From assembly GCA_017527155.1 (NCBI GenBank), contig JAFXQI010000042.1:67600-131599 (forward strand): 64,000 nucleotides of DNA, read 5' to 3'. Position numbers and translations under genes: made by a program. The notes beneath the pieces were generated by a model, which worked only from the letters and a program-made list of their open reading frames with translations, had not been told where the DNA came from and made no database searches. The stretch comes from Kiritimatiellia bacterium (GTDB lineage: Bacteria > Verrucomicrobiota > Kiritimatiellia > CAIQIC01 > Lenti-01). This document shows, in pieces, positions 6,014-63,940 of the stretch (positions within the stretch are counted from its first letter, which is position 1; each line of letters opens with the position of its first letter).

Positions 6014-6894
6014 TTCGCGGCCTCGGCGCCGTCGGCGAGGGCGAGGAGGTAGCGGCCGTATTCGTTCTTGGCCATCAGCTCGCCGCGTTCGCGGAGGGTG
6101 TCTTCCTTGATCCAGCCGGCGCGGAAGGCGATTTCCTCCAGGCACGCGATCTTGAGCCCCTGGCGCTCTTCGATGGTCTGCACGAAGTTCGACGCCTGGA
6201 GCAGCGATTCGTGCGTGCCCGTGTCGAGCCACGCGAAACCGCGGCCGAGCAGCTCGACGCGGAGCTTGCCGTCGCGGAGGTAGCTGCGGTTGAGGTCGGT
6301 GATTTCGAGTTCGCCGCGCGGCGAGGGCTTGAGGGCGGCGGCGCGGTCGCAGGCTTCGCCGTCGTAGAAGTAGAGGCCGGGGACGGCGTAGTTGGACTTG
6401 GGGCGCTTGGGTTTTTCTTCGAGGCCGAGGACCTTGCCTTCCGCGTCGAACTCGACGACGCCGTACCGCTCCGGGTCGCGCACGAGGTAGCCGAAGACGA
6501 GCCCGCCTTCCTTGAGCTTGCCCGCGCGCCGCAGGATGCCGGTGAGGCCCATTCCGTGGAAGATGTTGTCGCCCAGCACCAGCGCCGACGGCGACCCGCC
6601 CACGAAGTCGCGCCCGATGATGAACGCCTGCGCCAGCCCTTCGGGACGCGGCTGTTCGGCGTACTCCAGCCGCAGTCCCACGCCGCTGCCGTCGCCGAGC
6701 AGCGTGCGGAAGCGCGGAAGGTCCTCCGGCGTGCTGATGACCAGGATGTCGCGGATGCCGGCCAGCATCAGCACCGACAGCGGATAGTAGATCATCGGCT
6801 TGTCGTACACCGGCAGCAGCTGCTTGCTGATGCCTTGCGTGATGGGATAGAGGCGGGTTCCGCTTCCGCCGGCGAGGACGATGCCTTTCATCAT
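6010..6894 (-). CDS. rfbA: Glucose-1-phosphate thymidylyltransferase
   Basis: [51 protein letters not shown] is the canonical RfbA/RmlA N-terminus; 294 aa. Confidence 0.85.
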
Positions 6895-6926
6895 GGGGGG
6901 GCTCCTGGGTTTTCGGTGGGGGGCTG

Positions 6927-6982
6927 TTTTTCTAGATTTCTAGATAACTAGATTCCTAGGAAACTAGATTCTCTAGATTTCC
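6927..6982. repeat. AT-rich CTAG palindromic repeat cluster, locus L1 (tctagatttctagataactagattcctaggaaactagattctctagatttcc)
   Basis: A CTAGAT-rich island lies in an otherwise roughly 70 % GC context. It overlaps the hisC TAG stop and sits 33-88 nt upstream of the rfbA start. It is related to L2 (27463-27493), L3 (34463-34496) and L4 (53320-53356). Confidence 0.5.
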
Positions 6983-8085
6983 TTGAGGGCTTCCGCCAGC
7001 GCCGCGAGGCACGTCGCGTTCTCCTCCTCGGTGCCGATGCTGATCCGCACGTAGTCCGGCAGGCCGAACCCGGCGAGGGGCCGCACGATGACCTTGCGCT
7101 TCGTCATGGCGGCGGTGAGGGCGGCGGCCTTCTCGAAGCGGAACATGATGAAGTTCGTGACCGTTTCGACCGGGTCGAGGCCGAGCGCGCGCAGGCCGTC
7201 GGTCATCTGCTTCTGGCCGGCGATGAGGAGCTTGCGCGTGGACGAAATGTATTCCTGGTCCCCGATGGCCGCGACCGCCGCCGCCTGCGCCATCGCGTTG
7301 ACGTTGAACGGCTGCCGGACCTTGTTGAGCAGGTCGATGCCGTCCGGCTGCGCCATCGCGTAGCCGACGCGCAGCCCGGCCAGCCCGTACGCCTTGGAGA
7401 ACGTCCGCAGCGTGATGACGGGCTTCTTGCCGGCCTTGACGTGCTTGACGGTGTCCACCTGGCGCTCCGGCGGGACGAGCTCCATGTACGCCTCGTCGAA
7501 GACCGTCACCACGCGGTCCGGCACCGCGTCCACGAACGCGTCCACCTGCTCCTGCGTCAGGATGGTCCCCGTCGGGTTGTTCGGGTTGCCGATGACCACG
7601 ACCTTGGTGTTGGGCTTGATGGCGGCGAGCATCGCGTCCGGGTCGTGGGTCATGCCGTTCATGGGCACGAGCGTGCAGGTGCAGCGGAAGAGCTCCGACA
7701 CCAGCTTGTACACGACGAACGACCGCTGCGACGCCACCAGGTCGTCGCCCTCCCACATGAAGGCGTTGCAGATCAGCACCGCGTGCTCGTTGCAGCCGCA
7801 GCCGAGCATCACCATGTCGTCGCCGATGCCGTAATGCCGCGCGATCGCCTGCCGCAGGTAGTACGAGCCGCCGTCGGGGTAGCGGTTCATGTGCTCCACC
7901 GCGTCGTGCATGGCCTGCTTCGCCTTCGGCGAGGGGCCCCAGGCGTTCTCGTTCGACGCCAGTTTCACGATGCCCGACGCGTCCGCCAGCCCCAGCTCGC
8001 GCGCCACCTCCTCGATGGGGCGGCCCGGCTGGTAGGGTTTCTGCGCGGCGATCCAGTTGTTCGCGATGGTTCCGAAAAGACTCAT
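6973..8085 (-). CDS. hisC: Histidinol-phosphate aminotransferase
   Basis: 370 aa; NENAWGPSP, GNPNNPTG and TFSKAYGLAGLRVGY (PLP-lysine region) are typical of HisC. Confidence 0.85.
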   Translation of the reverse strand: MSLFGTIANNWIAAQKPYQPGRPIEEVARELGLADASGIVKLASNENAWGPSPKAKQAMHDAVEHMNRYPDGGSYYLRQAIARHYGIGDDMVMLGCGCNEHAVLICNAFMWEGDDLVASQRSFVVYKLVSELFRCTCTLVPMNGMTHDPDAMLAAIKPNTKVVVIGNPNNPTGTILTQEQVDAFVDAVPDRVVTVFDEAYMELVPPERQVDTVKHVKAGKKPVITLRTFSKAYGLAGLRVGYAMAQPDGIDLLNKVRQPFNVNAMAQAAAVAAIGDQEYISSTRKLLIAGQKQMTDGLRALGLDPVETVTNFIMFRFEKAAALTAAMTKRKVIVRPLAGFGLPDYVRISIGTEEENATCLAALAEALKEI

Positions 8086-8191
8086 GGTGTGTGCTCCTTT
8101 GGTTTGTCAAAATGCGGTTTCAGAAAACTCGATGGATTCGATGGTTTCGAAAAAATCGAAAGAATCGGAACGGTTGCCGCTTGAACGGCGG

Positions 8192-9040
8192 TCACTTTCC
8201 CTCGTCTTCCTCGTCTTCCTCGTCCTCTTCCTCGTCGTCTTCGTCGAACTCGTCCTCGTCCTCGTCGAATTCGTCGTCCTCGTCGAATTCGTCGGTTTCT
8301 TCCTCTTCTTCCTCGGCGGGCATCTCGGCGGCGGCCTCGACGGCTTCGATCTTCATCTGGTTCGGGTCTTCCGGCGGCTGCGGCGGGGTGTCGTCGGCGT
8401 CGTCTCCGCGGGACTTGCGGTCGTTGCCGTAGCGGGCGGCCTGCTCCGCCTCGATTCGGCGGAGCTCGTCCGTGCCCGGCAGGTCGTCGAGGTTCTTGAG
8501 CCCGAAGTGCTCCATGAACTTCTGCGTCGTCCCGAACATCCACGGCCGGCCCGGCAGCTCGCTGCGCCCCACCACCCGCACCAGCTGCAGGTCGAGAAGG
8601 TTCTTCAGGATCGCGTCCACGGCCACGCCGCGCACCGCCTCGATTTCCGAGCGCACGCACGGCTGCCGGTACGCGATGATCGCCAGCGTCTCCAGCGCCG
8701 GCAGCGAGAGCCTCGTCCCGCGCCCCTTCTGGAGCATCGTGCGGAGCCACGGACCGCAGTTCGCGTCGTTTTCCAGACGCCACCCGCCCGCCACCTCGAT
8801 CAGGTGGAACCCCGTCTTGCGGTCCGTCAGGTCCCTCCCCAGCTCCCCGAGCGCCTCCAGCACGAGCTTCTCGTCCGCCTTCGCGAAGTCGGCGGTGATG
8901 CCGCCGCGCCGCTCCGCCGTCGCCTTCAGCACGCGGCGTATCTCCGCGACCGGCAGCGGGTCCTTGCGCACGAACAGCATCGCGCCGATGATCTGCTTCA
9001 GCACCGGCAGCGCGAAATCACGGGTTTCCGTCGGACTCAT
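8192..9040 (-). CDS. scpB: Segregation and condensation protein B with an acidic E/D-rich C-terminal tail
   Basis: Start MSPTETRDFALPVLKQIIGAMLFV (M15 of ORF 8192..9082). The ScpB winged-helix region (LETLAIIAYRQPCVRSEIEAVRGV) is present. The C-terminus is EEEEEETDEFDEDDEFDEDEDEFDEDDEEEDEEDEEDEGK. Confidence 0.75.
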   Translation of the reverse strand: MSPTETRDFALPVLKQIIGAMLFVRKDPLPVAEIRRVLKATAERRGGITADFAKADEKLVLEALGELGRDLTDRKTGFHLIEVAGGWRLENDANCGPWLRTMLQKGRGTRLSLPALETLAIIAYRQPCVRSEIEAVRGVAVDAILKNLLDLQLVRVVGRSELPGRPWMFGTTQKFMEHFGLKNLDDLPGTDELRRIEAEQAARYGNDRKSRGDDADDTPPQPPEDPNQMKIEAVEAAAEMPAEEEEEETDEFDEDDEFDEDEDEFDEDDEEEDEEDEEDEGK

Positions 9041-9959
9041 CTTCAACCTTCTCCTCTTCCGCTTCCGCATCGGCGCCCGCATCCGCGTCCACCGCCGGGG
9101 CTCCGTCCGCGAGCGGCAACGTGCCGGTTTCCGGCGCGGGGGCGGCGTTGAGCTTCTTGCGGCGCCGCAGGATGGCGGCCGTCTGCGGGTCCTCGGCCGG
9201 GGCCTCGTCCTCGGGCTTCGCGCCCTCGGGCGGGATGTCCCGGTGCTCGATGAAAATCTCCCCGTACGTCTCCGACTGCACCGCGCGCGCCTGCCGGAGG
9301 CGGATCAGCTCCAGCAGCGCCAGGAACGTGCACGCGATCTCGTTGCGCGAGCGCATCTTGTCGAGCATCCCCGACAGCGAGAACCGCCGCTCCCGGCGGA
9401 GCCGGAGCCCCAGCGACTCGATCTTGTCGGCGACCGTGTAGCGTTCGGCGAAGATTTCCCGGAGCTCCTCGTCCTTGACCTTCTTGAGCGCCTCGTTGAA
9501 CGCGTTGATCAGGTCGAACAGCCCCACGTCGTGGAGCGCCACCTCCGGCTCGCGGCCGAGGACCGCCTCCGTCCCCTCGCGGCCGAAGATGTCCTCCCGC
9601 CGCACCTCCAGCTCCTCCAGGTGGAGCGCCGCGTCCTTGAACTTCTTGTACTCGACCAGCTGCCGGACCAGATCCCACCGCGGATCCTCCTCCTCGGCCT
9701 CCTCCTCGGGCCGGACCTCGGCGGGCAGCAGCATCCGGCTCTTGATCATCATCAGCGTGGCGGCCATGACCAGGAACTCCCCCGCGACGTTGAGGTCGAG
9801 CCGCTTCATCATCTCGAGGTACTCGATGTACTGCCTGGTGACGCTCTCCATCGGGATGTTGCTGATGTCCAGCTCGTCCTTCTTGATGAGGTACAACAGC
9901 AGATCGAGAGGTCCCTCGAAGACCTCCAGCTTGACCTTGTATTCCTCGTTCCTGTCCAT
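9018..9959 (-). CDS. scpA: Segregation and condensation protein A
   Basis: Start MDRNEEYKVKLEVFEGPLDLLLYLIKKDELDI (M149 of ORF 9018..10403) is the ScpA signature. The 3' end overlaps the scpB start by about 22 nt. Confidence 0.75.
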   Translation of the reverse strand: MDRNEEYKVKLEVFEGPLDLLLYLIKKDELDISNIPMESVTRQYIEYLEMMKRLDLNVAGEFLVMAATLMMIKSRMLLPAEVRPEEEAEEEDPRWDLVRQLVEYKKFKDAALHLEELEVRREDIFGREGTEAVLGREPEVALHDVGLFDLINAFNEALKKVKDEELREIFAERYTVADKIESLGLRLRRERRFSLSGMLDKMRSRNEIACTFLALLELIRLRQARAVQSETYGEIFIEHRDIPPEGAKPEDEAPAEDPQTAAILRRRKKLNAAPAPETGTLPLADGAPAVDADAGADAEAEEEKVEDESDGNP

Positions 9960-10305
9960 GTGGGCGTTTGTCCGTTCAGTGGCAATCTTTTCCACTTTAC
10001 CCTCTCCCCCCGCCCGGGGCAACGCCAAACCCAACGCCAAACCCAACGTCGGCCTGCTCCTGCCTCCAGCGTCCCAGCCGTTGTCCGCGCAAGGTTCCGC
10101 CCCCGGAACAGGCACCACCGGGGTTTTCCCGCTTCGGCCCTGTCCGCATCCGGAGGCTTGTACATGGCGGAGATGCGCCCGCGGAGGACCGGAACGGAGG
10201 TCCGGCACGCGCAAAAACGGTTGACATGGAAGGGAAATGGGGGATGATGGCCGGTGTTCTTGCCGAGCAAGCGGCAACCAAACCAAACAAGGAGTGAAAC
10301 AATCC

Positions 10306-11154
10306 ATGAAGAAGATGATGACCGCCCTGATGCTGGCCGCCCTGGCCGCGTCGATGGCCACGGTTTCCGCGAGCGCGGAGGAAGTGACCCAGGAAGAAGC
10401 CAACTACGCCGTGACCGTCAGCGCCGACGTGCTGAGCGCCTACGTCTCCAAGGGCGTGACCGGCAACGACGAGCCCGTGTTCCAGCCCGACGTGTACGTC
10501 GAGATGCCGTACGGCTTCAGCTTCGACGTCTGGGCCAACATGAACATCACCGACGCCAACTGCAACTGGGATCCCAAGACCGGCGGCAAGTGGTCCGAAT
10601 TCGACCTGACCCTCGACTGGACGGTTCCGATCGAAGGCCCCGTCTCCCTCACCTTCGGCGGCACGTACTTCGTGTACCCGCAGGCCAAGGGCGATGTCAT
10701 CGTCGCGACCGAGGAAGAAGCCGAGAACGTCAAGGCCGGCGCCCCCGCCGACGGCGACTACGAGCTCTTCGTCAAGGCCGGTGTGGATTGCCTCCTCCAG
10801 CCCGCACTCGAGTTCTACCACGACTGCCAGTCCAGCAGCGACTGGTACTTCCTCGGCAAGATCGGCCACGACTTCGAACTGACCGATCTCCTCGGCCTCC
10901 ACCTCGGCGCCACCGTCGGCTTCGTCGGCGACGACTTCGCCGAACGCTACGGCTCCGACGACGGCGCGGCCTTCTCGCACGCCCAGTTTGACGCCAAGCT
11001 CGGCTACGCGGTGACGGACGCCCTCGAAGTCCACGCCAAGGCCAGCTTCAGCACGCTGATCGACGGCGACATCCGCGACGGCGTCAAGGACAGCTACGAC
11101 GACATCGACTGCGAAATCTTCTACGGCGGCGTCGGCTGCGGCTACACGTTCTGA
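10306..11154 (+). CDS. Secreted protein, predicted outer-membrane beta-barrel (function unknown)
   Basis: AAGGAG sits 10 nt upstream of the ATG. The signal peptide is MKKMMTALMLAALAASMATVSASA. Amphipathic strands recur (YAVTVSADVLSAYV, VSLTFGGTYFVY, LGLHLGATVGFVG). The C-terminal ...GVGCGYTF ends in Phe, as in beta-barrel OMPs. Confidence 0.5.
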   Translation: MKKMMTALMLAALAASMATVSASAEEVTQEEANYAVTVSADVLSAYVSKGVTGNDEPVFQPDVYVEMPYGFSFDVWANMNITDANCNWDPKTGGKWSEFDLTLDWTVPIEGPVSLTFGGTYFVYPQAKGDVIVATEEEAENVKAGAPADGDYELFVKAGVDCLLQPALEFYHDCQSSSDWYFLGKIGHDFELTDLLGLHLGATVGFVGDDFAERYGSDDGAAFSHAQFDAKLGYAVTDALEVHAKASFSTLIDGDIRDGVKDSYDDIDCEIFYGGVGCGYTF

Positions 11155-14854: not shown

Positions 14855-14970
14855 CCTCCGCCCGTTGTTTCCCAGTGCGGACGCGCAGAAGCGCGTCCCT
14901 CCCCGTGGAGAGCGCACCGGGAGGGTCGCGCTTCCGCGCGACCATGTGGTAGGGAAGCGTTCGGGAAGCT
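14855..14970 (-). repeat. GC-rich multi-hairpin interspersed element, copy A (inverted orientation)
   Basis: The reverse complement matches copies at 37515-37620, 40537-40640 and 62652-62848: ttctg(c/t)(a/g)gcttccc...ccaca(a/t)ggtcgcgcggaagcgcgaccctcccgg..ccacggggagggacgcgcttctgcgcgtccgc. It lies between the convergent ettA and folK. Confidence 0.6.
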
Positions 14971-37514: not shown

Positions 37515-37620
37515 TATTCTGTGGCTTCCCAGACGTTTCCCAACCACAAGGTCGCGCGGAAGCGCGACCCTCCCGGGGTGCGCTCTCCACGGGGAGGGAC
37601 GCGCTTCTGCGCGTCCGCCC
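37515..37620 (+). repeat. GC-rich multi-hairpin interspersed element, copy B
   Basis: ttctgtggcttcccagacgtttcccaaccacaaggtcgcgcggaagcgcgaccctcccggggtgcgctctccacggggagggacgcgcttctgcgcgtccgc. Hairpins are ggtcgcgc-GGAA-gcgcgacc, ccctccc...gggaggg and ggacgcgc-TTCT-gcgcgtcc. Confidence 0.6.
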
Positions 37621-40536: not shown

Positions 40537-40640
40537 CATTCTGTGGCTTCCCAGGCGTTTCCCAACCACAAGGTCGCGCGGAAGCGCGACCCTCCCGCTG
40601 TGCTCGCCACGGGGAGGGACGCGCTTCTGCGCGTCCGCGA
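40537..40640 (+). repeat. GC-rich multi-hairpin interspersed element, copy C
   Basis: ttctgtggcttcccaggcgtttcccaaccacaaggtcgcgcggaagcgcgaccctcccgctgtgctcgccacggggagggacgcgcttctgcgcgtccgc. Confidence 0.6.
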
Positions 40641-54233: not shown

Positions 54234-55525
54234 TGGGCGGATTTTTCGAGGGCCTGGGCGAGGTCGGCGAGGATGTCGTCGATGTGTTCGATGCCGACGG
54301 ACAGGCGGATGAGGTCGGCGGGGATGCCGGCGGCGGCGAGCTGTTCGTCGGTGAGTTGCCGGTGGGTGGTGGAGGCGGGGTGCAGGAGGCAGGTGCGGGC
54401 GTCGGCGACGTGGGTGAGGATGGCGCCCAGTCGCATGGAATCCATGAGCTTGGTGGCGGCGGCGCGGCCGCCCTTGACGCCGAAGGAGACGACGCCGCAG
54501 GTTCCGCGCGGCATGTATTTCTGCGCGAGGGCGTGGTAGGGGCTGGAGGGGAGGCCGGGGTGGTTGACCCACGCGACGCGGGGGTGGTTCTCCAGGAATT
54601 CGGCGACGGCCAGGGCGTTGCGGACGTGGCGTTCCATGCGCAGGGGCAGGGTTTCGAGGCCGAGGTTGAGGACGTAGGCGGCGAGGGGCGTCTGGGCGGT
54701 GCCGAGGTCGCGCATGAGCTGGGCGCGGGCCTTGACGATGTAGGCGGAGGGGCCGAAGGCGTCGGTGTAGACGAGGCCGTGGTAGGAGGGGTCGGGTTCG
54801 GTCAGGCCGGGGTATTTGCCGGAGGCTTTCCAGTCGAAGCGGCCGGAATCGACGATGACGCCGCCGGTGGTCTGGGCGTGGCCGTCCATGTACTTGGTAG
54901 TGGAATGCACGACGATGTCGGCGCCGTGCTCGAAGGGGCGGCAGAGGGCCGGGGTCGGGAAGGTGTTGTCGATGACGAGCGGCACGCCGTGGGCGTGGGC
55001 GACGGTGGAGAGTTTGGCGAAGTCGGCGACTTCGAGGGACGGGTTCGTCACGGATTCGGCGAAGAGGGCGCGGGTGTTGGGGCGGAAGGCGGCCGCGATT
55101 TCGTCGGCGGAGGCGGAGGGCGGGACGAAGGTGGTCTCGATGCCCATGCGCTTCATGGTCACGGCGAAGAGGTTGAAGGTGCCGCCGTAGATGGCGGAGG
55201 AGGCGACGAGGTGGTCGCCGGCGCCGAGGAGGTTGAAGACGGCCAGGAAGGACGCGGCCTGGCCGGAGGAGGTGAGCATGGCGCCGATGCCGCCTTCGAG
55301 GGCCGCGATCTTCTTTTCGACGTAGTCGAGGGTGGGGTTGCCGAGGCGGGTGTAGAAGAAGCCGGGCTCGGCCAGGTCGAAGAGGCGCGCCATCTGCTCG
55401 GAGGAGTCGTAGTGGAAGGTGGTGGACTGGTAGATGGGCATGACGTGGGGTTCGCCGTTGCCCGGGCGCCAGCCGGCTTGCAGGCAGAGGGTTTCGATGT
55501 GGTCGGTGGGGGGGAGTTGGCTCAT
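54230..55525 (-). CDS. metY: O-acetylhomoserine aminocarboxypropyltransferase / sulfhydrylase
   Basis: 431 aa; it belongs to the PLP-dependent Cys/Met metabolism family, with STTKYMDGH (PLP-Lys) and the N-terminal ETLCLQAGW. Confidence 0.85.
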   Translation of the reverse strand: MSQLPPTDHIETLCLQAGWRPGNGEPHVMPIYQSTTFHYDSSEQMARLFDLAEPGFFYTRLGNPTLDYVEKKIAALEGGIGAMLTSSGQAASFLAVFNLLGAGDHLVASSAIYGGTFNLFAVTMKRMGIETTFVPPSASADEIAAAFRPNTRALFAESVTNPSLEVADFAKLSTVAHAHGVPLVIDNTFPTPALCRPFEHGADIVVHSTTKYMDGHAQTTGGVIVDSGRFDWKASGKYPGLTEPDPSYHGLVYTDAFGPSAYIVKARAQLMRDLGTAQTPLAAYVLNLGLETLPLRMERHVRNALAVAEFLENHPRVAWVNHPGLPSSPYHALAQKYMPRGTCGVVSFGVKGGRAAATKLMDSMRLGAILTHVADARTCLLHPASTTHRQLTDEQLAAAGIPADLIRLSVGIEHIDDILADLAQALEKSAQ

Positions 55526-55685
55526 GGTCGGAAGGTCCTTTCGGGGTTCGGGTGGGTGTTGTAGCGCGCGGGGGGGCGGATGGGAAGCGAAAACAGGCGG
55601 CCGGCCGACGGCCGGCCGTCAGGAGGGGGAGGGCGCCCCGGCGGGGCGGGGCGGAGCAAAACTCATAGGGAGGAGGGGGGAGGGG

Positions 55686-58600
55686 CTAGGGGGTGGGGCA
55701 GGTGGCGCGGAGGTGGTAGAAGGTGGCGGGGGTGGAATTGGTGTCGAAGTACATGGAGACGGGGGGGGTGTTGGTGATTGCGAACTGGGAGGTGGATGCG
55801 GGCAGGAGAAGGTTGGTGGTGAAGGAGAGCTGGTAGGTGACGCCGGTGGCGGAGGGCCAGGAGAGGAGGGTGCCGGTGGAGTCGGCTTCGGCGTCGAGAC
55901 GGAAGAAGGACGCGCCGTCGTTGGGGTCGGTGCCGAGGTGGTATTCTTCGAGGTTGGTGAAGCCGTCGGCGTCGGGGTCGAGGTTGGGGTTGCAGGCGGT
56001 GGCGCCGCCGAAGTGGGCGATGGCCCACCAGTCGGGGATGCCGTCGGAGTCGGTGTCGAGGCGGCGGATGGCGTTGGTGAAGGTGACGGAGGCGGTGCCG
56101 AGGGTGTTGGAGGCGATGAAGGTGAAGACGTTGGTGGCGGGATAGCTGGAGTTGATTTCGAGATAGCCGGTGCCGACGTCGAAGGAGTAGGTGTATTCGT
56201 CGGCGACGGTGTGCGCGGCGTCGAGGGTGATCAGGGGGTATTCGCCGGAGACGTATTGGTAGAGGTTCAGGATGGGCGCGGCGTCGAGGTCGACGAGAAG
56301 GTCGCCGAGGGGCTGCCAGGCGGGGGCGTTGCCGGCGGTGACGGTGACGTCCTGTTCGATGCTTCCGGCGGCGTTTTCGGCGCGGAAGGTGAAGGTGTAG
56401 GCCCCGGCGGCGGGGGCTTCGAAGATGAAGATGTCTTCGGCGATGGCATAGGCGGAGTCGTCGATTTCGTCGCCGGTGCGGGAGTCGAAGGTCCCGACGA
56501 GGGTGACGGCGGGGGACGGAAAGCCGGTGACCTGGCTCTTGAGGTCGATGGTGATTTCGCCGCCGACGCCGGTGGTGTAGGCGGTTTCGCCGGTCCAGGC
56601 GGGGGCGGTCTGGTTGGCGTCGAAGAAGTCGAGGATCTTCTTCATGAGGGTGTTGCGGCGGGTGGCGTCGGTGATGGTCTCGAAGGGGAAGCCGGCGACG
56701 ACGGTGCGGCAGACGGAGTTGGAGCAGGCGATGATGGCGCCGTTGGTGCCGGAGGTGCCGCCGTAGGTGGCGGCGACGAAGGCTTCGCCGACGGGGGCGA
56801 GGGTGTCGGGGTAGTTGGCGGCGTAGATGTCGGGGAGGTTGTTGGTGTAGTTGAAGTCGGCGCGGGTGCCGGAGAGGAAGGTGCCGCTCTTGCCGCTGAC
56901 GATGGCGCTGCCGCCGTCGTCGGCGACGTAGGTGCAGTGGAGGTAGTTGGTCATGAAGGCCTTGTCGGAGTCGGAGCCCTTGGCGGAGAGGTCCCAGCCG
57001 ATTTCGGAGCCGGAGACGAAGAGGGCGCCGCCGTTGTCGAGGAAGGCGGCAAGGCGCTGCTGTTCGTCGTAGGTGAAGGTTTCGTCGGCGGTGGATTCTT
57101 CTCCGAGGCACCAGACGACCTTGGGGTAGCGGGCGAGGTCGGAGGAGGTGACGCGGGAGGCGTCCATGTAGTCGAAGGAGCGTCCGGCGGCGGCGATGGC
57201 GTTGCCGTGTTCCTTGACGTAGTCGAAGGAGTTGATCATGCGCGGGCGGACGAGGGTGACGTTGCCCTTGAGGTTGTTGGCGAAGTAGCGGGTCGGGGAC
57301 TGGGCGCCGTCGTTGCGCTTGAAGCCGTCGACGACGAGGACGTCGGCGGTGGAGCCGTCGGAGGAGAGCCCGGCGCCGGCGACGGGCGAGGAGAGGGATT
57401 CGCCGCCGAGGTTGGTGGCGCAGACGCGGAAATAATATGGGTTCCCGGCGGGGAGGTCGGTGAATTTGTGGGCGTATTCGTCGGCGGGGGAGGTGATGGC
57501 GACGGGGTTGCCGAAGGCGTAGCCGTTGGTGGAGACGTAGATGACGAAGCCGGTGTGGGGGTCGGACATGCGGTTGGTGCCGTGGGGCATCTGCCAGGAG
57601 ACGGTGACGCAGTTGGGGCCGGAGTTGGTGGCGGCGACGGCGACGGGGGCGTCGGGGGCGCAGATTTCGCGGACGGTGAGGGTGGAGTCGGTGGCGTAGC
57701 GGGTGACGAAGTGGCGCAGGATGCCGCGCAGGGCGGAGCGGGCGAGCCATTCGCGGCCGGTGGGGGACTTCATGATGGCGGCGTCGAGTTCCTTGTCGTG
57801 GAAGGCGACTTCGGCGATGGTGTTGTCCATCTTGGTCCAGATGGAGCCGCCGTAGATTTCGCCGTAGTGGGAGCCGAGGGTGCGCGCGCAGTCCTGCTGC
57901 CAGGCGGTGGCGACGAGGCCGTGGGCGTGGGCGGCGGTCATGTTGCTGACGATGGAGTTGGCGATGCAGCGGGCGAGGTTGGTCTGTCCGGCGAGGTAGG
58001 AGCCGGTGACGCGGGTGTCGTAGAGGCCCATGCAACCGCGCTGGGAGCCGGAGGCGTTGGAGTGGAAGGAGAGGTACAGGCGGCGCCAGCGCGGCCAGTC
58101 GTTGGTGCGGCACATGGCGTAGGCCATGCGGTTGGGGGCGGAGACGTTGTCGTCCTGGTCGTAGCTGGCGGTGGAGTTGTAGATGGAGTCGGGGAGGCCC
58201 TGGGAGTCGAGGACCATGCGCTGGGTCCAGTAGCGGGCGCCTTCGAGTTCGCGCTCGTAGCCGGATTTGCCGGCGGTGCCGCGCGAGATGTCGCCCATGC
58301 CGTTGCCGAAGCGGACGGCGTCGGCGATGACGGTGCCGTCGTCGAAGCCGGGGGCGAAGTTGGAGATGTTGACGCAGCCGTTGGTGCCGGCGTCGAACCA
58401 GTAGTTGCCGAGCCAGACCCATCCGTTGCCGACCTGGCGGTGGTCGACGCGGACGTCGGTGACGCCGCCGGCGTGGTGGACACGGTAGAGCTGCGGGACG
58501 CGGTCGGAGCCGGGACGCGCCCAGACGTAGACGGGGTATTCGCCGGCCGCGGGAAGGGACGGGCGGAAGGAGGCCCAGGCGGTGGTGCCGGTGGCGCAGA

Positions 58601-61600
58601 TGTTGGCCCAGCGGTAGCCGACTTCGCCGGCCTTGCCGTGGTAGTAGTCGGTCTGGGACGTGTTGCCCCAGTTGCCGCCGTAGGTGACGCGCGAGGCGAG
58701 GGAGGCGGCGGTGTCGACGTTGTCGATGACGACTTCGTTGGTCTGGTAGCCGAGCGGGCGCATGGGGACGACGGTGGCGCCGGCCTTCCACGCCTGCAGG
58801 GCGAAGTAGTTGAGCTGGTCGATCGTCCCCATGTCCTCGACCATGCCGTAGGTGATGCCGCGTCCGGCCGCCCAGGCGTTGGTCTGGCCGTTGGCGGTGA
58901 AGCCGTGGCCCGCGGCGACGTAGAGGACGATGCCGGAAAGCGCCCCGTGCGGCTGCTCGGCGGTGGAGGTGCCGAAGGGGGACCAGGAGTCGGCGTCGGG
59001 TTCCTCGGGGGCCGTGGAGGTGCCCTCGATGGTCAGGCGGCGCCACTGGATGGACCCCGCCGTGCCGGAGTTGCTGGCGCAGAAGATGACGCCGTGCTCG
59101 CCGCCGTCGAGCGCGGGGGAGAAGGAGAAGGTGTTGGTGTAGGTCTGCTTCAGGGGCGTGGCGCAGACGCCGACGGGGGAGAAGCTGGCGCCGCCGTTGG
59201 TGGAGGCGTAGAGGGTGGCCTGGCGGGTGTCCGCGGCGGAGGCGGGGCGGAAGAGGGTGGTCACCTGCGTGACGACGCCGGCGAAGGCCGGGGTGGTGGC
59301 CCAGGAATTGGTGGGTTTGTAGAGGTAGACGTAGCCGGTGTCTCCGCTCGTCTCGTCCGTGGGCCGGACGTAGCAATTGCCGAGGTTCCACGCGTGGTTG
59401 TTGACGTTGGTTTCGCCGCTGTAGAGGGCGTCGTCGCACAAGGACCAGCCTTCGGGGACGGTGAAGTCCCATGTGGTCGATACGGGCGTGATTTCGGTGG
59501 AGGGTTCGTCGCCGCCGGTCTCCTCGGTGGTGGTGGCGGTGGTCTCGACCCAGACGGAGCGGGTGTTCTCGGTGAGGGCCTGGACGCGGATCCAATATGG
59601 GGTTTCGGGGGAGAGGCCTTCGATGGTGTCGGAGGGGGAGGTGACGGTCTTGGGATAGCCTTCGGGGCGGTTGGCGTCGCAGTAGCGGCCGGTGGTGCCG
59701 GAGAAGGAGAGTTTGATGTTCTTGAGGCCCGCGCCGCGGAGGGAGCCGGAGGTGGAGTCGGCGTGGCGTTCGGCGTAGGGGGCGACGATCTTCACGGCGA
59801 GGGTTTCGCCGTCGAGATAGGGGAGGTCGTAGGACTGTGCGGACCAGTCTTCGTCGTCGGTGGAGGCGGCGCGGCACTCGCCGAGGAAGTTCCAGGGGCC
59901 TTGGTCGAGGCGGTAGTAGACGCGGAGGACGGAGCAGGTGATGCCGACGGTGGATTTGGCGGCATTCCACGGGCAGTTGGAGAAGGAGAGGTTCGCGCTG
60001 GTCGCCCCGTAGAGCGGGAAATCCCACGATTGGAGAGCCTGTCCGGGATGGCCGGCCAGGTAGTGTCCCGCATATTTGGCCGTGGAGCAGTAGCCGGGGC
60101 CTGCGCCGAGGTTGCTGGAGGTCGTGACGGTGCGGACGGTGCCGGTGTAGCACCAGGACTGGCCGGTGAGGAACTGGTTCGTCCCGAGGGAGGCCGACGG
60201 GCAGGTGGCGGTCCAGTTGGTGTAGGGGCCGCTGGCGACGTCGACCTGGTAGGCGGCGGCGCCAGGGGCGGCGGTCCAGGAGAGGGCGATGTTGGTGGCG
60301 GCGGGCTCGGCGGCGAGGCCGGAGGGTACCATGCCGGGGGTGACCGTCACGATGTCGGACCAGTTCGTGGAGGAGGCGTTGCGGACGCGCAGGCTGACGG
60401 GCGAGGAGAGGCCGGTGAGGTTGGTCGCGCAGGTGTCGGCGAGGGGGGTTCCGGTGGCGGCGACCCAGTTGGTGGTCGTGCCGGTGGCAACGAAGGAGTG
60501 GAGCAGGACCGTCGTGGGCTCCCCGGTCGTCACGTTTTCGAAGCGGAAAACGGTTCCGCCGGGATTGGAGATGGAACAGGCCGTGGCGTAGTCGAGGATG
60601 GCCGAGACGTTGGAGCAGGCGTAGGTGCCGACCGTGGTGAAGCCGGTGCTCCCGGCGGGGGCGGCCAGGACGCGGAGTTTGCGGCCTTCGTAGTTCGACG
60701 CGGCGGCGGCGCGAACGCGGACGGCCAGCTGCGTGACAGTGCCGGAAACGGGCGGCGTCTGGATGTAGGAATTGGAGTACGTCAGGTAAACGTAGCCGGG
60801 GTCCTGGTAGTTGGTGATGCCGGGGCGGAGTTCCAGCTTGCCGCGGAGCCCCCAGGCGCTGCCGGCCACGTTGACGGTGGTGGGCGTGGTCGTGGTGACG
60901 TTGTTCGTCACCCAGCCCTCGGCGGAGGAGAACGAATTGGAGAAGACGAGCGGCACGTCCTCCCACCAGCCGTCCGCGAGCCCTTCGGGCGTGGGGGCGG
61001 ACTGGACGACGTAGCCGGCGGGATCCACGACGGCGGGGGTCCAGGAGAAGAGCGCGGAGGAGGCGCCGATGCCCGTGGCGCGGGCGTCGGGGGCGCTGGC
61101 GCCGGAGCCGCCGCCGGAGCCGCCGCCGGAGTAGGTGTCGAACTTCTCGCCGAGGAGTTCCCACAGCTCCTCCGCTTCCGGCGCGTGGGTCAGGCACCAG
61201 ATGCCGACGCCGCCGAGGCCCTTGGACTTCGCGTAGTCGTACTTGAGGCCGAGCGATTCCGCGTCGTCGTAGAAACACTGGTAGGCGTTGGTGCCGGACT
61301 TGTACGCGTAGTACGGGACGGACCCGTTCGAGTCCCATTGGCGCCCGTGGTTTTCGGCGGCGGCGACCGCGTTGGGGTATGTCACGGCGGCCGAGTAGGA
61401 CGAGCCGCAGGACTTCGAGCCGATGCTGGTGGTGGCGGACTTCCAGCGGCGGCCGTAGTAGGGCACCGCCAGCATGAGGTGGGCGGCGTTGGTCATCTTG
61501 TTGAGATAATAGCGGGTCGAATAGTCCACGCTGCACCAGGAGGATGCCCCCTGCCACTGTGCCGACGAATAGAGCGGCGCGACGGGCCCGGGCGTGGCGG

Positions 61601-62444
61601 AACCGGCATAATAATAGTCGTAGCCCATGATGATCGAGTAATCCACGCCGATCTTCTCGTACTCCCCGACCGCGAAGTCCGCGTACCAGTCCACCGACGG
61701 CAGGCAGATCGAGACTTCCAGGTTGGCCGCGTGCGCCTTCGCGACGAGATTGCTCATGAACGCCGTCAGCGCCTTCGTCGCCCCCGACCACGACCCGACC
61801 GACTCGAAGTCGATGCAGATCCCGTCCCCGCCGCGTGCCGTGGTTTTCGCGACGAGATTGGTGATCAGCTTCGTGCAGGCCGCGCTGTTGGTGAGCAGCG
61901 CGTGGTTGGCGGTCTCGCCGAAGAGCGTCGCCGTGAGGAGAACCTTCACGCCGTTGGAATGCGCGGTTTCGACGACGGGATCCGTGTTCCACCCATGGAG
62001 GCTGGAGATGCTTCCGGCGCTCCCGACCTCGGCGGAAAAATACGCGACGTGGGTCAGGTTGGAGTAGTCATAGGAGAGATAATCCCCCGCCTCGGCCCAG
62101 TAGGGATGCCACCCGAGCACGCGCGCCCCGTCCGCGATGCCGGTGGCCCGCGGCGTGATGACCGACTTCTTCGGCACGGCCCTGAGCGCCTTGCGCCGCT
62201 GCGCCGCCGTCTGCCCGTCCGGATGCGCCTCCATCTCCAGCTGGTGGATGGGGACGAACCCCGCGAAATCCGCCGGCGGCGCGAACGGGAAATCCGCCTC
62301 CGAAACGTCCGGCACCTCGAACGGCGGCGGATCGTCGGCCACGTCGCCTTCTTCCTCGATCTGGGCCTTCGCGCACCATGGCACGGCCACGGCGAAAAGG
62401 GCGGAAAGGGTCAATGCACGGCGGACAATACGGATGGCTTTCAT
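55686..62444 (-). CDS. Giant secreted multidomain protein (2252 aa): GH18 chitinase-like domain, beta-sandwich (FN3/Ig-like) repeats, an Amidase_3/M14-like zinc-hydrolase domain, and C-terminal thrombospondin-type-3 Ca-binding repeats
   Basis: Start MKAIRIVRRALTLSALFAVAVPWCAKAQ (signal peptide) inside ORF 55686..63578. The GH18 catalytic motif is DGICIDFE (DxxDxDxE) with GVDYSIIMGYDYYY. An amidase-like region follows (VAAGHG...LSFHSNA...AEVAFHDKELD). The TSP3-like stretch is DTDSDGIPDWW...DPDADGFTNLEEYHLGTDPND. A G/S linker is encoded by ggagccgccgcc repeats. Confidence 0.7.
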   Translation of the reverse strand: MKAIRIVRRALTLSALFAVAVPWCAKAQIEEEGDVADDPPPFEVPDVSEADFPFAPPADFAGFVPIHQLEMEAHPDGQTAAQRRKALRAVPKKSVITPRATGIADGARVLGWHPYWAEAGDYLSYDYSNLTHVAYFSAEVGSAGSISSLHGWNTDPVVETAHSNGVKVLLTATLFGETANHALLTNSAACTKLITNLVAKTTARGGDGICIDFESVGSWSGATKALTAFMSNLVAKAHAANLEVSICLPSVDWYADFAVGEYEKIGVDYSIIMGYDYYYAGSATPGPVAPLYSSAQWQGASSWCSVDYSTRYYLNKMTNAAHLMLAVPYYGRRWKSATTSIGSKSCGSSYSAAVTYPNAVAAAENHGRQWDSNGSVPYYAYKSGTNAYQCFYDDAESLGLKYDYAKSKGLGGVGIWCLTHAPEAEELWELLGEKFDTYSGGGSGGGSGASAPDARATGIGASSALFSWTPAVVDPAGYVVQSAPTPEGLADGWWEDVPLVFSNSFSSAEGWVTNNVTTTTPTTVNVAGSAWGLRGKLELRPGITNYQDPGYVYLTYSNSYIQTPPVSGTVTQLAVRVRAAAASNYEGRKLRVLAAPAGSTGFTTVGTYACSNVSAILDYATACSISNPGGTVFRFENVTTGEPTTVLLHSFVATGTTTNWVAATGTPLADTCATNLTGLSSPVSLRVRNASSTNWSDIVTVTPGMVPSGLAAEPAATNIALSWTAAPGAAAYQVDVASGPYTNWTATCPSASLGTNQFLTGQSWCYTGTVRTVTTSSNLGAGPGYCSTAKYAGHYLAGHPGQALQSWDFPLYGATSANLSFSNCPWNAAKSTVGITCSVLRVYYRLDQGPWNFLGECRAASTDDEDWSAQSYDLPYLDGETLAVKIVAPYAERHADSTSGSLRGAGLKNIKLSFSGTTGRYCDANRPEGYPKTVTSPSDTIEGLSPETPYWIRVQALTENTRSVWVETTATTTEETGGDEPSTEITPVSTTWDFTVPEGWSLCDDALYSGETNVNNHAWNLGNCYVRPTDETSGDTGYVYLYKPTNSWATTPAFAGVVTQVTTLFRPASAADTRQATLYASTNGGASFSPVGVCATPLKQTYTNTFSFSPALDGGEHGVIFCASNSGTAGSIQWRRLTIEGTSTAPEEPDADSWSPFGTSTAEQPHGALSGIVLYVAAGHGFTANGQTNAWAAGRGITYGMVEDMGTIDQLNYFALQAWKAGATVVPMRPLGYQTNEVVIDNVDTAASLASRVTYGGNWGNTSQTDYYHGKAGEVGYRWANICATGTTAWASFRPSLPAAGEYPVYVWARPGSDRVPQLYRVHHAGGVTDVRVDHRQVGNGWVWLGNYWFDAGTNGCVNISNFAPGFDDGTVIADAVRFGNGMGDISRGTAGKSGYERELEGARYWTQRMVLDSQGLPDSIYNSTASYDQDDNVSAPNRMAYAMCRTNDWPRWRRLYLSFHSNASGSQRGCMGLYDTRVTGSYLAGQTNLARCIANSIVSNMTAAHAHGLVATAWQQDCARTLGSHYGEIYGGSIWTKMDNTIAEVAFHDKELDAAIMKSPTGREWLARSALRGILRHFVTRYATDSTLTVREICAPDAPVAVAATNSGPNCVTVSWQMPHGTNRMSDPHTGFVIYVSTNGYAFGNPVAITSPADEYAHKFTDLPAGNPYYFRVCATNLGGESLSSPVAGAGLSSDGSTADVLVVDGFKRNDGAQSPTRYFANNLKGNVTLVRPRMINSFDYVKEHGNAIAAAGRSFDYMDASRVTSSDLARYPKVVWCLGEESTADETFTYDEQQRLAAFLDNGGALFVSGSEIGWDLSAKGSDSDKAFMTNYLHCTYVADDGGSAIVSGKSGTFLSGTRADFNYTNNLPDIYAANYPDTLAPVGEAFVAATYGGTSGTNGAIIACSNSVCRTVVAGFPFETITDATRRNTLMKKILDFFDANQTAPAWTGETAYTTGVGGEITIDLKSQVTGFPSPAVTLVGTFDSRTGDEIDDSAYAIAEDIFIFEAPAAGAYTFTFRAENAAGSIEQDVTVTAGNAPAWQPLGDLLVDLDAAPILNLYQYVSGEYPLITLDAAHTVADEYTYSFDVGTGYLEINSSYPATNVFTFIASNTLGTASVTFTNAIRRLDTDSDGIPDWWAIAHFGGATACNPNLDPDADGFTNLEEYHLGTDPNDGASFFRLDAEADSTGTLLSWPSATGVTYQLSFTTNLLLPASTSQFAITNTPPVSMYFDTNSTPATFYHLRATCPTP

Positions 62445-62651
62445 GCTTTCGATTTTACCCCCACGCGCGCGCGGAGGAAAGCCGAAAAAGCGGGGAGGAA
62501 TGGAGCGGAGGGCATCCCGCTTTGTGCAAGGTGCAAGCCCGGAAGCGGAGAGGGAGGACGGGGGAAAACTCCGATTGGTCCGATGGCCCGGGATGCGGGA
62601 GAAACGCGCGAAGCCGGCGGTTCCAGCGGGGAATGGGGGGCTTCCTCTTTT

Positions 62652-62848
62652 CCTGCAGCTTTCCGGACGTTTTTCCACCACAAGGTCGCGCGGAAGCGCG
62701 ACCCTCCCGGTGCGTTCTCCAGGGGGAGGGACGCGCTTCTGCGCGTCCGCGGGGGAAACCGGACGTTTTTCCACCACAAGGTCGCGCGGAAGCGCGACCC
62801 TCCCGGTGCGTTCTCCACGGGGAGGGACGCGCTTCTGCGCGTCCGCGG
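62652..62848 (+). repeat. GC-rich multi-hairpin interspersed element, two tandem copies (D and E)
   Basis: Two consecutive units of about 98 bp lie immediately upstream of the giant gene's start. Each is ccaccacaaggtcgcgcggaagcgcgaccctcccggtgcgttctcca(g/c)ggggagggacgcgcttctgcgcgtccgc. The 204-aa ORF 62441..63055 (-) with a duplicated peptide is their translation artefact. Confidence 0.6.
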
Positions 62849-63061
62849 TGGAAATGCCCGGAGGGACGATGGATGGAGGCCCCCCTGTTCCTTTGAGCGG
62901 TTCAAGAAACAGTACAGCTCCTGTTTCGCCTTCCAGACTGGTGGGGGCGAGCTCTCCGAGCGAGCCGTTCCTTGCGCCTCTGAGGCTCGCACGGAGTGCT
63001 CGCCCTGCCAGGCCCCTGTCACGGGGCGACCACGGTATTTCTCGACCCGCTCCAAACCGCG

Positions 63062-63940
63062 CTAGGGGGCGAAGACGCGGGTGCGGAAGAAGCGGACGAC
63101 GGCGCGGTGGCGGATGCGGATGCGGTTCTGGTAGGGGAGAAGGCTGGCGGGGGGCCAGTGGAGCATCTCCATTTCCAGGTCCAGCGACGGGGTGTAGCGG
63201 TTGTCGAGGTACCACGCGTAGGCGAGGCCGAAGAAGATGCCGCAGGGCAGGAAGCCGGTATCGCGGGGAACCGCGCGCCACCAGCGGAGGGGCTCGCCGG
63301 GGCGCGGCTGCATCTGGGACAGGTGGAGGCCTTCGGCGAGGTCGCGGTCGCCGAAGAAGCAGTGGCGGGCGCCTGCGGGGCGGAGGCGGATTTCGTAGAC
63401 GCGGCAGGCGGCGGAGGGGTCGTCGAGCCAGCGTTTTTCGTCGATGTAGTCGCCGAGGAGGGATTCGCCGAGGGCGATGGCGAAGTTGGCCATCAGGGTC
63501 TGCGGGGTGGCCAGGGCCTGGGCGTGGAGGTTGATGGTGGAGGTGGCGGGATCGTAGTAGCCCTGGATGTTGTCCCATTCCTGGCTGCGGGTCCAGCGGT
63601 CGGCGGGGACGACGCGGATGCGGCGGACGCGGGCGAGGTGGGAGGGGAGGATGTCGGCGTGCTTCCAGAGGAAGTCTTCGAGGAGGGGCCGGAGGGTGGG
63701 GGGGGAGACGGGGATGCGGGAGAGGGCGGTGCGGCAGGACTCCATGCGGGAAAAGGCGGTGGGGGCGTCGGTGGCGAGGGGGGAGGGGACCGCGGCGTTT
63801 CCGCCGCGGCGCGGGACCTCTTGGCGCGGGACTGCCGGGAGAGCGGGGGGGCGAGGGCGGGCGGGGCGGGGGGAGGCGGAGAGTTCTTCGTAGAGGGTGC
63901 GGAGGGCGGCGGCGAAGCGGGCGGCGTCGTGGTGGAGCAT
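63062..63940 (-). CDS. Hypothetical protein
   Basis: The 292-aa ORF starts MLHHDAARFAAALRTLYEEL. Its C-terminal half (WDNIQGYYDPATSTINLHAQALATPQTLMANFAIALGESLLGDYIDEKRWL) looks globular and non-repetitive. No family recognised. The true start could lie beyond 63940. Confidence 0.35.
   Translation of the reverse strand: MLHHDAARFAAALRTLYEELSASPRPARPRPPALPAVPRQEVPRRGGNAAVPSPLATDAPTAFSRMESCRTALSRIPVSPPTLRPLLEDFLWKHADILPSHLARVRRIRVVPADRWTRSQEWDNIQGYYDPATSTINLHAQALATPQTLMANFAIALGESLLGDYIDEKRWLDDPSAACRVYEIRLRPAGARHCFFGDRDLAEGLHLSQMQPRPGEPLRWWRAVPRDTGFLPCGIFFGLAYAWYLDNRYTPSLDLEMEMLHWPPASLLPYQNRIRIRHRAVVRFFRTRVFAP

Follow-up and report, generated by a model that had tools for sequence, protein, structure and literature searches.

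Among the closest described counterparts of the protein considered here are members of two enzyme families. Within glycoside hydrolase family 18 (GH18), SleL/YaaH is an experimentally shown N-acetylglucosaminidase on peptidoglycan fragments (PMC10653849, citing Lambert and Popham 2008), and in the same paper YdhD is assigned by similarity only. In the Amidase_3 family, all characterised enzymes cleave the bond between N-acetylmuramic acid and L-alanine (MurNAc-L-Ala; PMC6403190). We describe a gene that would join one domain of each family on a single exported polypeptide. It is encoded on the minus strand of a 64,000-nucleotide stretch (hereafter the window; contig JAFXQI010000042.1 of GenBank assembly GCA_017527155.1) from a Kiritimatiellia bacterium. 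An earlier sequence-only reading had seen a glycan-cleaving and an amide-cleaving domain on one giant exported protein, and this pairing is upheld at the level of fold and residue conservation. Judged from its sequence, the product is most likely a modular bifunctional cell-wall/glycan hydrolase, of interest for its substrate and for a conserved module composed of the amidase, a carbohydrate-binding module (CBM), an fn3 domain and a GATase1-like domain. With moderate confidence, we read it as a Sec-exported modular enzyme of ~235 kDa with two hydrolytic centres acting together on extracellular bacterial peptidoglycan. The following features are central to this reading:

55686..62444, minus strand: whole gene, 2252 codons plus stop (stop codon 55686-55688)
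62364..62444, minus strand: signal peptide-like N-terminus, residues 1-27, with a basic n-region, a hydrophobic core, and A-K-A followed by Q
61191..62102, minus strand: GH18 catalytic domain, residues 115-418 (Pfam PF00704)
61803..61826, minus strand: GH18 active-site motif D207-G-I-C210-I-D212-F-E214, from sequence and alignments
57675..58952, minus strand: zinc amidase domain of the Amidase_3 fold, residues 1165-1590
58905-58907, 58836-58838 and 58062-58064, minus strand: zinc ligands H1180, E1203 and H1461, respectively
57810-57812, minus strand: catalytic E1545 of the amidase
58290..58739, minus strand: Golvesin_C/CBM35-like beta-sandwich nested in the amidase, residues ~1236-1385
57384..57653, minus strand: fn3 domain, residues 1598-1687 (Pfam fn3 and Foldseek fn3 matches)
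56616..57347, minus strand: alpha/beta domain resembling GATase1, ThuA and the GH42 middle domain, residues 1700-1943, without a Cys-His-Glu triad

The 2252-codon frame (62444..55686) lies inside a longer stop-free stretch, and its translation from the Met at 62444 begins MKAIRIVRRALTLSALFAVAVPWCAKAQ. The gene is real: six public metagenome contigs carry a gene call with exactly the same 2252-residue product, and more than 100 homologous protein clusters were found. A sheep-rumen Kiritimatiellae metagenome-assembled genome (MAG), RGIG6903, which is a GTDB genome, is 99% identical over the region tested, and the host is an uncultured Kiritimatiellae bacterium represented by a sheep/goat-rumen MAG. 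Read by eye, the N-terminus MKAIRIVRRALTLSALFAVAVPWCAKA, followed by Q, resembles a Sec signal peptide and is kept in the ortholog consensus. The giant open reading frame (ORF) with a signal peptide-like start, as first described, is borne out by these data. Besides the signal peptide, no transmembrane helices were found in the protein. Between the signal peptide and the GH18 domain, residues 28-105 (window 62130-62363) form a conserved acidic, Pro-rich stretch with the ortholog consensus DDPPPFEVPDVSE.DFPFAPPAD...VPIHQLE.EAHPDG. It may be a pro-peptide or extend the GH18 domain at its N-terminus.

The GH18 domain was identified by a Pfam PF00704 match (E 3.8e-31; 109.4 bits against a cut-off of 29.6) that covers profile positions 5-314 of 317, i.e. 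the whole (beta/alpha)8 domain. The sequence-only reading had credited this domain with a complete DxxDxDxE motif. Domain and catalytic Glu are confirmed, but the motif is incomplete: DGICIDFE (residues 207-214) reads D-x-x-C-x-D-x-E, with Cys210 in place of the second Asp, and its alignment partner in chitinase 8hw6 is DGCDIDWE. By sequence, the domain is a GH18 member apart from the full chitinase signature. Among 111 relatives, the motif takes the form D-G-[VI]-[C/N]-I-D-F-E, and position 210 is Cys in 67, Asn in 44 and Asp in none. D212 and E214 never vary in this set, and the MGYDY strand and W416 vary little or not at all. Loss of the catalytic Glu in alignment had been named beforehand as a ground for doubting the domain; instead, D212 and E214 fall on the D-x-E of chitinase 8hw6, 4wiw and YdhD.

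Searched against the PDB, the GH18 family profile gave 4wiw (2.4e-38) and B. subtilis YdhD (3cz8, 3.4e-36) ahead of chitinases (~1e-31), with SleL (4s3j, 1.2e-24) and YaaH (1.5e-19) lower down. The (beta/alpha)8 domain is common to the window protein and the whole SleL/YaaH and YdhD group (4s3j, 4s3k, 3cz8 and the structural-genomics entry 4wiw). Moreover, 4wiw (...DGVVIDFE) and YdhD (...GGVTIDFE) likewise lack the second Asp and keep D-F-E; the fourth motif position is Val or Thr in these two, whereas it is Cys or Asn in the giant protein and its relatives.

The second catalytic domain contains the GHG...LSFHSNA...E region from which the sequence-only reading had proposed an Amidase_3- or M14-like zinc hydrolase. 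The Amidase_3 part of that proposal stands and the M14 part does not: no fold or sequence match to M14 carboxypeptidases was found, and the three-dimensional fold is that of Amidase_3, in complete form. The Pfam score is borderline. PF01520 matches residues 1422-1576 with 26.7 bits for the domain alone and 22.4 for the whole protein (cut-off 27), and some relatives exceed the cut-off with 32-35 bits. The match is limited to profile positions 42-173, the C-terminal two-thirds, because of an inserted module (see below). The amidase family profile found CwlD at 4e-7 and CwlV at 4e-6, and the xFHSNA and IxEVAFH segments align with the motifs that hold the zinc-ligand His and the catalytic Glu in these enzymes. 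H1461 and E1545 were placed by this alignment, and H1180 and E1203 by alignment of the GHG motif together with the coverage of the fold matches, not by coordinates. H1180, E1203, H1461, N1463 and E1545 are invariant in 215 sequences of several phyla. Fold and catalytic residues thus place the domain in Amidase_3, with a borderline Pfam score, and it is apparently a complete, active-looking member. A non-enzymatic fold, the second ground for doubt named in advance, is not what was found; the complete fold comes with four invariant catalytic residues.

The known Amidase_3 (NALAA-3) enzymes 4rn7 (C. difficile), CwlD (7rag), AmiC (4bin, E. coli), LytH (7tj4, S. aureus) and CwlV (1jwq) share the motifs GHG, E, xHxNA and E-x-x-F with the window amidase. 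Still, identity to them is only 14-19%, with the Pfam score just under the cut-off, and the targeting domains AMIN, LysM, SPOR and SH3 are all missing from the window protein. Unlike the known enzymes, the window amidase carries an insert of ~150 residues, a CBM35-like Golvesin_C module (Pfam match at residues 1250-1380, E 2e-24) positioned between the second and third zinc ligands. This module is 30% identical to the C-terminal CBM6-CBM35-CBM36_like_2 module of a Paenibacillus xanthan lyase (PDB 6f2p), where it is appended rather than nested within a catalytic domain.

A further difference from the known enzymes is that amidases of the window type always precede fn3 and GATase1-like domains. 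The fn3 domain was detected by Pfam at E 1.2e-12 (two stretches over the whole protein). In structural models, amidase, fn3 and GATase1-like domain are predicted to form one rigid, conserved unit of ~800 residues (predicted template modelling score, pTM, 0.92). The “nucleophile elbow” of the GATase1-like domain reads G-S-E1814-I-G, and the central position is Glu, Asp or Asn in relatives. Across 173 sequences, no Cys or His of this domain is conserved at the 93% threshold, and a sequence search of the PDB with the domain gave no match; by fold, the domain comes closest to an N-acyl amino-acid acylase (8i5a). A role as catalytic glutaminase or peptidase was rejected on these grounds, i.e. the missing triad, the variable elbow residue and the negative PDB search. 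The nested CBM, the ~800-residue unit and the large family in the Planctomycetes–Verrucomicrobia–Chlamydiae (PVC) group to which they belong (see below) go beyond what had been noted before.

In the proposed mechanism, the amidase would remove stem peptides from MurNAc, and the GH18 domain would then act as an N-acetylglucosaminidase on the bared glycan strand, like SleL on the peptide-poor spore cortex. The retained Asp-x-Glu pair (D212, E214) would be used for substrate-assisted cleavage after an N-acetylglucosamine (GlcNAc) residue, and peptide removal by the amidase would in this way feed the glycosidase. The CBM-like modules may hold the polymer, while the C-terminal calcium loops and beta-sandwich could tether the enzyme to the cell surface or a partner. 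Its role would be the scavenging of cell-wall debris or an attack on neighbouring rumen bacteria, rather than remodelling of the own wall. Peptidoglycan is proposed as the substrate because 4wiw and YdhD lead the GH18 matches, SleL/YaaH is active on peptidoglycan, and the characterised Amidase_3 enzymes share a single specificity. The extracellular role is suggested by the size of the protein, its CBM-like modules and dockerin-like loops, the surface-type modules of relatives and the multiple paralogs per genome.

Several observations weigh against this assignment. The GH18 profile fits genuine chitinases almost as well (~1e-31 versus 1e-38), and YdhD itself is uncharacterised. The amidase is remote from known enzymes and just misses the Pfam cut-off, as described above, and no recognised peptidoglycan-binding module (LysM, SPOR, PGB, SH3b) occurs in the protein. 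Genes for muropeptide uptake or recycling are absent from the gene neighbourhoods, which are not conserved. It should also be noted that the activity of the family is predicted from sequence and that export past the outer membrane is assumed.

An alternative that we regard as rather unlikely is that the protein degrades chitin or other GlcNAc-containing glycans, such as fungal walls, chitooligosaccharides or N-glycans of host or microbial origin. In that case, the GH18 domain would be a chitinase or endo-beta-N-acetylglucosaminidase, and the amidase module would act on a different amide or serve mainly as a carbohydrate-binding platform via its inserted CBM. True chitinases are indeed hit in large number by the family profile (E 1e-26 to 1e-32), the protein has a region equivalent to the chitinase insertion domain, and a weak GH85-like signal was seen. 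Anaerobic fungi with chitin walls live in the rumen, which counts for this alternative, as do the several CBM6/35/36-like modules, whose known relatives bind polysaccharides. Golvesin_C-type modules are glycan-binding lectins in gut Bacteroides (Cbeg4/5; PMC9166713), and GH18 substrates are very diverse (PMC11218509). Conversely, the top GH18 matches are the YdhD/4wiw group and not chitinases, and no chitin-binding CBM5/12, CBM14 or LysM module was found by Pfam. Given the uniform MurNAc-L-Ala specificity of characterised Amidase_3 enzymes, four invariant catalytic residues would also be hard to explain in an idle amidase. The comparison leans towards peptidoglycan over chitin. Much the same conservation speaks against an adhesin or lectin without enzymatic activity, whose two catalytic-looking domains would be pseudo-enzymes serving only to bind glycans, an option we consider highly improbable. 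The catalytic Glu and the neighbouring Asp are typically lost in dead GH18 lectins, yet both are invariant in the 111 sequences, as are the four amidase residues in 215 sequences of several phyla. What can be said for a pseudo-enzyme is that the GH18 motif lacks its second Asp, that the Amidase_3 score falls under the Pfam cut-off, that dead GH18 lectins exist (chitinase-like proteins are among the PDB matches), and that binding-type modules dominate the protein.

The substrate could also be peptidoglycan of the cell itself. A housekeeping autolysin for growth or daughter-cell separation, i.e. a PVC-group counterpart of AmiA/B/C fused to a glycosidase, would agree with the very wide conservation of the module in Planctomycetota, Verrucomicrobiota, Kiritimatiellota, Lentisphaerota and Sumerlaeota, with the housekeeping genes that adjoin the giant gene in the window, and with the name “AmiA-like protein” that one source gives to a member. 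Still, 2252 residues with many CBM-like and spacer modules are atypical of a periplasmic autolysin, and the dockerin, LEPR-XLL or Ig modules of relatives are typical of surface or extracellular proteins. As several genomes carry at least two copies, including a tandem pair, and linkage to division or cell-wall synthesis genes is lacking, we judge this account unlikely. We are equally doubtful that the ~800-residue unit represents a distinct, undescribed extracellular enzyme class of the PVC group and Sumerlaeota, with a substrate or action unlike that of classical cell-wall amidases. In such a class, a new composite active site or binding groove could, for instance, be formed jointly by the nested CBM and the GATase1-like domain, and an amide-linked glycoconjugate other than peptidoglycan might be the substrate. 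Going by the fold match to 8i5a, the GATase1-like domain could itself be catalytic, as a third centre. The fused YdhD-like GH18 domain of the giant protein would then mark a new two-step depolymerisation of a GlcNAc-containing polymer.

The giant gene is a member of a large, database-visible and uncharacterised family, and its sequence shows no anomalies. A whole-protein search returned 114 clusters of 1300-3400-residue proteins from Kiritimatiellae, Lentisphaerota and Verrucomicrobiota MAGs, named “spore germination protein YaaH”, “GH18 protein” or “fn3 domain-containing protein” at source. Of the 114 clusters, 112 contain GH18, and 91-92 contain the amidase, fn3 and GATase1-like parts in combination. 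The pairing of GH18 with the amidase module is co-conserved in ~90 protein clusters; the middle and C-terminal parts vary. Searching with the amidase domain exhaustively gave 2976 representatives (318 at E <= 1e-30), and a word-index search with the 796-residue module gave 985 clusters at E <= 1e-20. The module mostly occurs without GH18, in proteins of 850-1400 residues that consist of a signal peptide and amidase-fn3-GATase1-like domains, with dockerin, Ig or LEPR-XLL modules added in some. Cultured Planctomycetes with the module include Botrimarina hoheduenensis (the “AmiA-like protein”) and Aeoliella sp. Relatives of the module were found in 424 species-level genomes; the best 80 of the 424 belong to Kiritimatiellae, Verrucomicrobiota, Lentisphaerae, Planctomycetota and Sumerlaeota, save a few stray or uninformative labels. 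No literature was found on this protein family, on Golvesin_C-bearing amidases or on GH18-amidase fusions.

Some genomes hold at least two copies of the module, in one case in tandem. The tandem stand-alone paralogs (1005 and 978 residues) are located at positions 4944-7961 and 8001-10937 of locus L087, on a 2.3-Mb metagenomic contig, and adjoin genes for a gamma-glutamyltranspeptidase and for LTD/dockerin and PEP-CTERM proteins. One Kiritimatiellae MAG encodes both a 2244-residue GH18-amidase giant (P0008, IJT88_03605) and a 2810-residue GH18-only paralog (P0095, IJT88_08790). The latter comprises reelin-like jelly rolls and fn3 domains, with no second catalytic domain by Pfam, and other catalytic domains were sought in the GH18-only giant paralogs with negative result. 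Many relatives have propeller-like repeats between GH18 and amidase instead of jelly rolls, with the consensus WTxRxSGxxxxLxxVxYGNGxxVAVGxxGxIxTSxDGxxW (from homologs P0020-P0090) and precomputed PF25852 matches in some. No conserved gene neighbourhood was detected around the fused gene, 80 amidase-module loci or two stand-alone members; for the 80 loci, all-against-all clustering of the flanking ORFs yielded no groups other than the gene itself and its shadow ORFs.

The remainder of the protein consists of the following parts:

59010..61094, minus strand: non-catalytic all-beta region, residues 451-1145, with CBM-like jelly rolls (~495-660, ~741-925, ~990-1140) and fn3 segments
56070..56597, minus strand: two Ig/PKD-like beta-sandwich spacers, residues ~1950-2125 (weak Pfam PKD and I-set matches)
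55917..56057, minus strand: two Asp-rich calcium-loop motifs (DTDSDGIPD... and DPDADGFTNLEE), residues 2130-2176, dockerin/TSP3-like, read from sequence
55689..55907, minus strand: C-terminal beta-sandwich-like tail, residues 2180-2252, co-conserved with the calcium loops in 70 homologs

Residues 436-1150 are all-beta in a structural model (predicted local distance difference test score, pLDDT, 83; pTM 0.48), which matches jelly rolls of the CBM36/6/4/35 and MAM/reelin types as well as fn3 domains. The multiple beta-sandwich domains expected by the sequence-only reading are indeed numerous, but a relationship between jelly rolls is detectable for one pair only (34% identity over 116 residues, E 6e-10). 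The pattern VTVTPG...W.A.PGAAAYQV, taken for a repeat, occurs once, at residues 699-735; going by sequence and predicted strands, an fn3 domain broken by an inserted jelly roll seems to begin here. On the same basis, two fn3 domains seem to be split by jelly-roll insertions (window 59670-60350 and ~60240-61094; residues ~455-985), such that N-terminal strands at ~455-490 and 703-740 would be completed at ~659-702 and 930-972. The Ig/PKD-like spacers are conserved in the 17 closest orthologs only. The thrombospondin type 3 (TSP3) repeats claimed near the C-terminus are not supported: residues 1946-2252 have no Pfam match to TSP3 (PF02412) or TSP3_bac (PF18884) at E <= 1, and the segment holds two generic calcium-binding DxDxDG loops only (residues 2130-2141 and 2156-2167). 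Precomputed PF18884 matches exist in some homologs, and NCBIfam Amuc_1099_fam gives a partial match over the loops with 31.7 bits against a cut-off of 50.

The gene lies in a window of ~70% G+C, and at 55.4-63.6 kb three overlapping ORFs exceed 2000 codons each. The near absence of stops in three frames, correctly noted by the sequence-only reading, is trivial: G+C at the three codon positions of the coding frame is 0.57/0.54/0.93 (0.926 at the third), and since all stops begin with T, a third-position value of 93% nearly bars them from two other frames. The three open frames are a compositional by-product with no bearing on overlapping genes. Of the three ORFs, only the one that ends at 55686 on the minus strand translates into a protein-like sequence; the plus-strand ORF at 55434-63065 and the minus-strand ORF at 55663-61992 were rejected as genes, as their translations are rich in Gly, Ala, Arg and Val, lack homologs and owe their openness to the same composition. 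The flanking elements are:

55598-55618, minus strand: terminator-like hairpin, a perfect 9-bp GC stem followed by a T-run, 68 nt past the stop codon (consensus scan)
62663-62758 and 62759-62854, no strand assigned: two tandem 96-nt repeat copies with two GC-rich hairpins each, starting 218 nt upstream of the ATG

The hairpin past the stop codon is weak evidence for transcription of the giant gene as a separate unit; in the same scan, terminator-like sites are no commoner here than in shuffled sequence. Upstream, the intergenic region measures 618 nt. The two tandem hairpin elements reported here do exist, but they are not immediately upstream of the start and belong to a dispersed repeat. Three more copies occur in the window at 14879-14943 (opposite orientation), 37550-37616 and 40572-40636, giving five copies of ~90-96 nt in 64 kb with a mean column identity of 88%. 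The hairpins read GGTCGCGC-GGAA-GCGCGACC and GGACGCGC-TTCT-GCGCGTCC, and the hairpin pattern gave 10 matches where 0.03-0.17 are expected by chance. The element resembles repetitive extragenic palindromes or miniature inverted-repeat transposable elements. As an Rfam search with the repeat found no matching family and the copies are dispersed, a regulatory RNA was rejected in favour of a genomic repeat, which is probably functionally unconnected with the giant gene.

If the protein acts on extracellular peptidoglycan as proposed, a single secreted polypeptide of a large, uncharacterised family would couple two steps in the breakdown of peptidoglycan; ~90 clusters have the fused form, and the amidase module occupies ~1000 clusters and is found in the 424 species-level genomes. 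Its poorly cultured hosts are abundant in guts, digesters, soils and sediments and belong to the Kiritimatiellota, Verrucomicrobiota, Planctomycetota, Lentisphaerota and Sumerlaeota. Rumen Kiritimatiellae, which are mostly described as degraders of polysaccharides, would then have bacterial cell-wall debris as a substrate, peptidoglycan-active GH18 enzymes would extend beyond spore germination, and such enzymes would be candidate lytic agents. If the substrate is chitin, by contrast, the protein would be another modular chitinase with an unexplained accessory domain.

Compared with the SleL/YaaH/YdhD group, i.e. proteins of 320-430 residues from Firmicutes spores that carry LysM, the window protein is a 2252-residue multi-domain protein without LysM from a non-sporulating PVC-group bacterium. 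A parallel in logic is Atl of S. aureus, in which an Amidase_2 domain is followed by a GH73 N-acetylglucosaminidase on one polypeptide that is processed into two enzymes. Atl places, and the window protein would place, a stem-peptide amidase and a glycan-strand glycosidase on one exported chain; Atl combines Amidase_2 with GH73, amidase first, whereas the window protein combines GH18 with Amidase_3 in the opposite order. In a 2019 survey of cell-wall hydrolase architectures, GH73 is the sole catalytic partner of Amidase_3 and GH18 is unmentioned (PMC6403190). On the peptidoglycan assignment, GH18 plus Amidase_3 would join the known architectures. Degradation of prey cell walls has been proposed for giant surface proteins found in Omnitrophota and further PVC-related lineages (bioRxiv 10.1101/2023.11.21.568195; PMC12057145). 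Like the window protein, these are very large exported multi-domain PVC proteins with carbohydrate-binding and cell-wall-hydrolase-type domains. However, they exceed 5000 and reach up to 85,800 residues, as compared with 2252 here, and the window protein differs from them in having no transmembrane helices beyond its signal peptide and a well-defined domain content.

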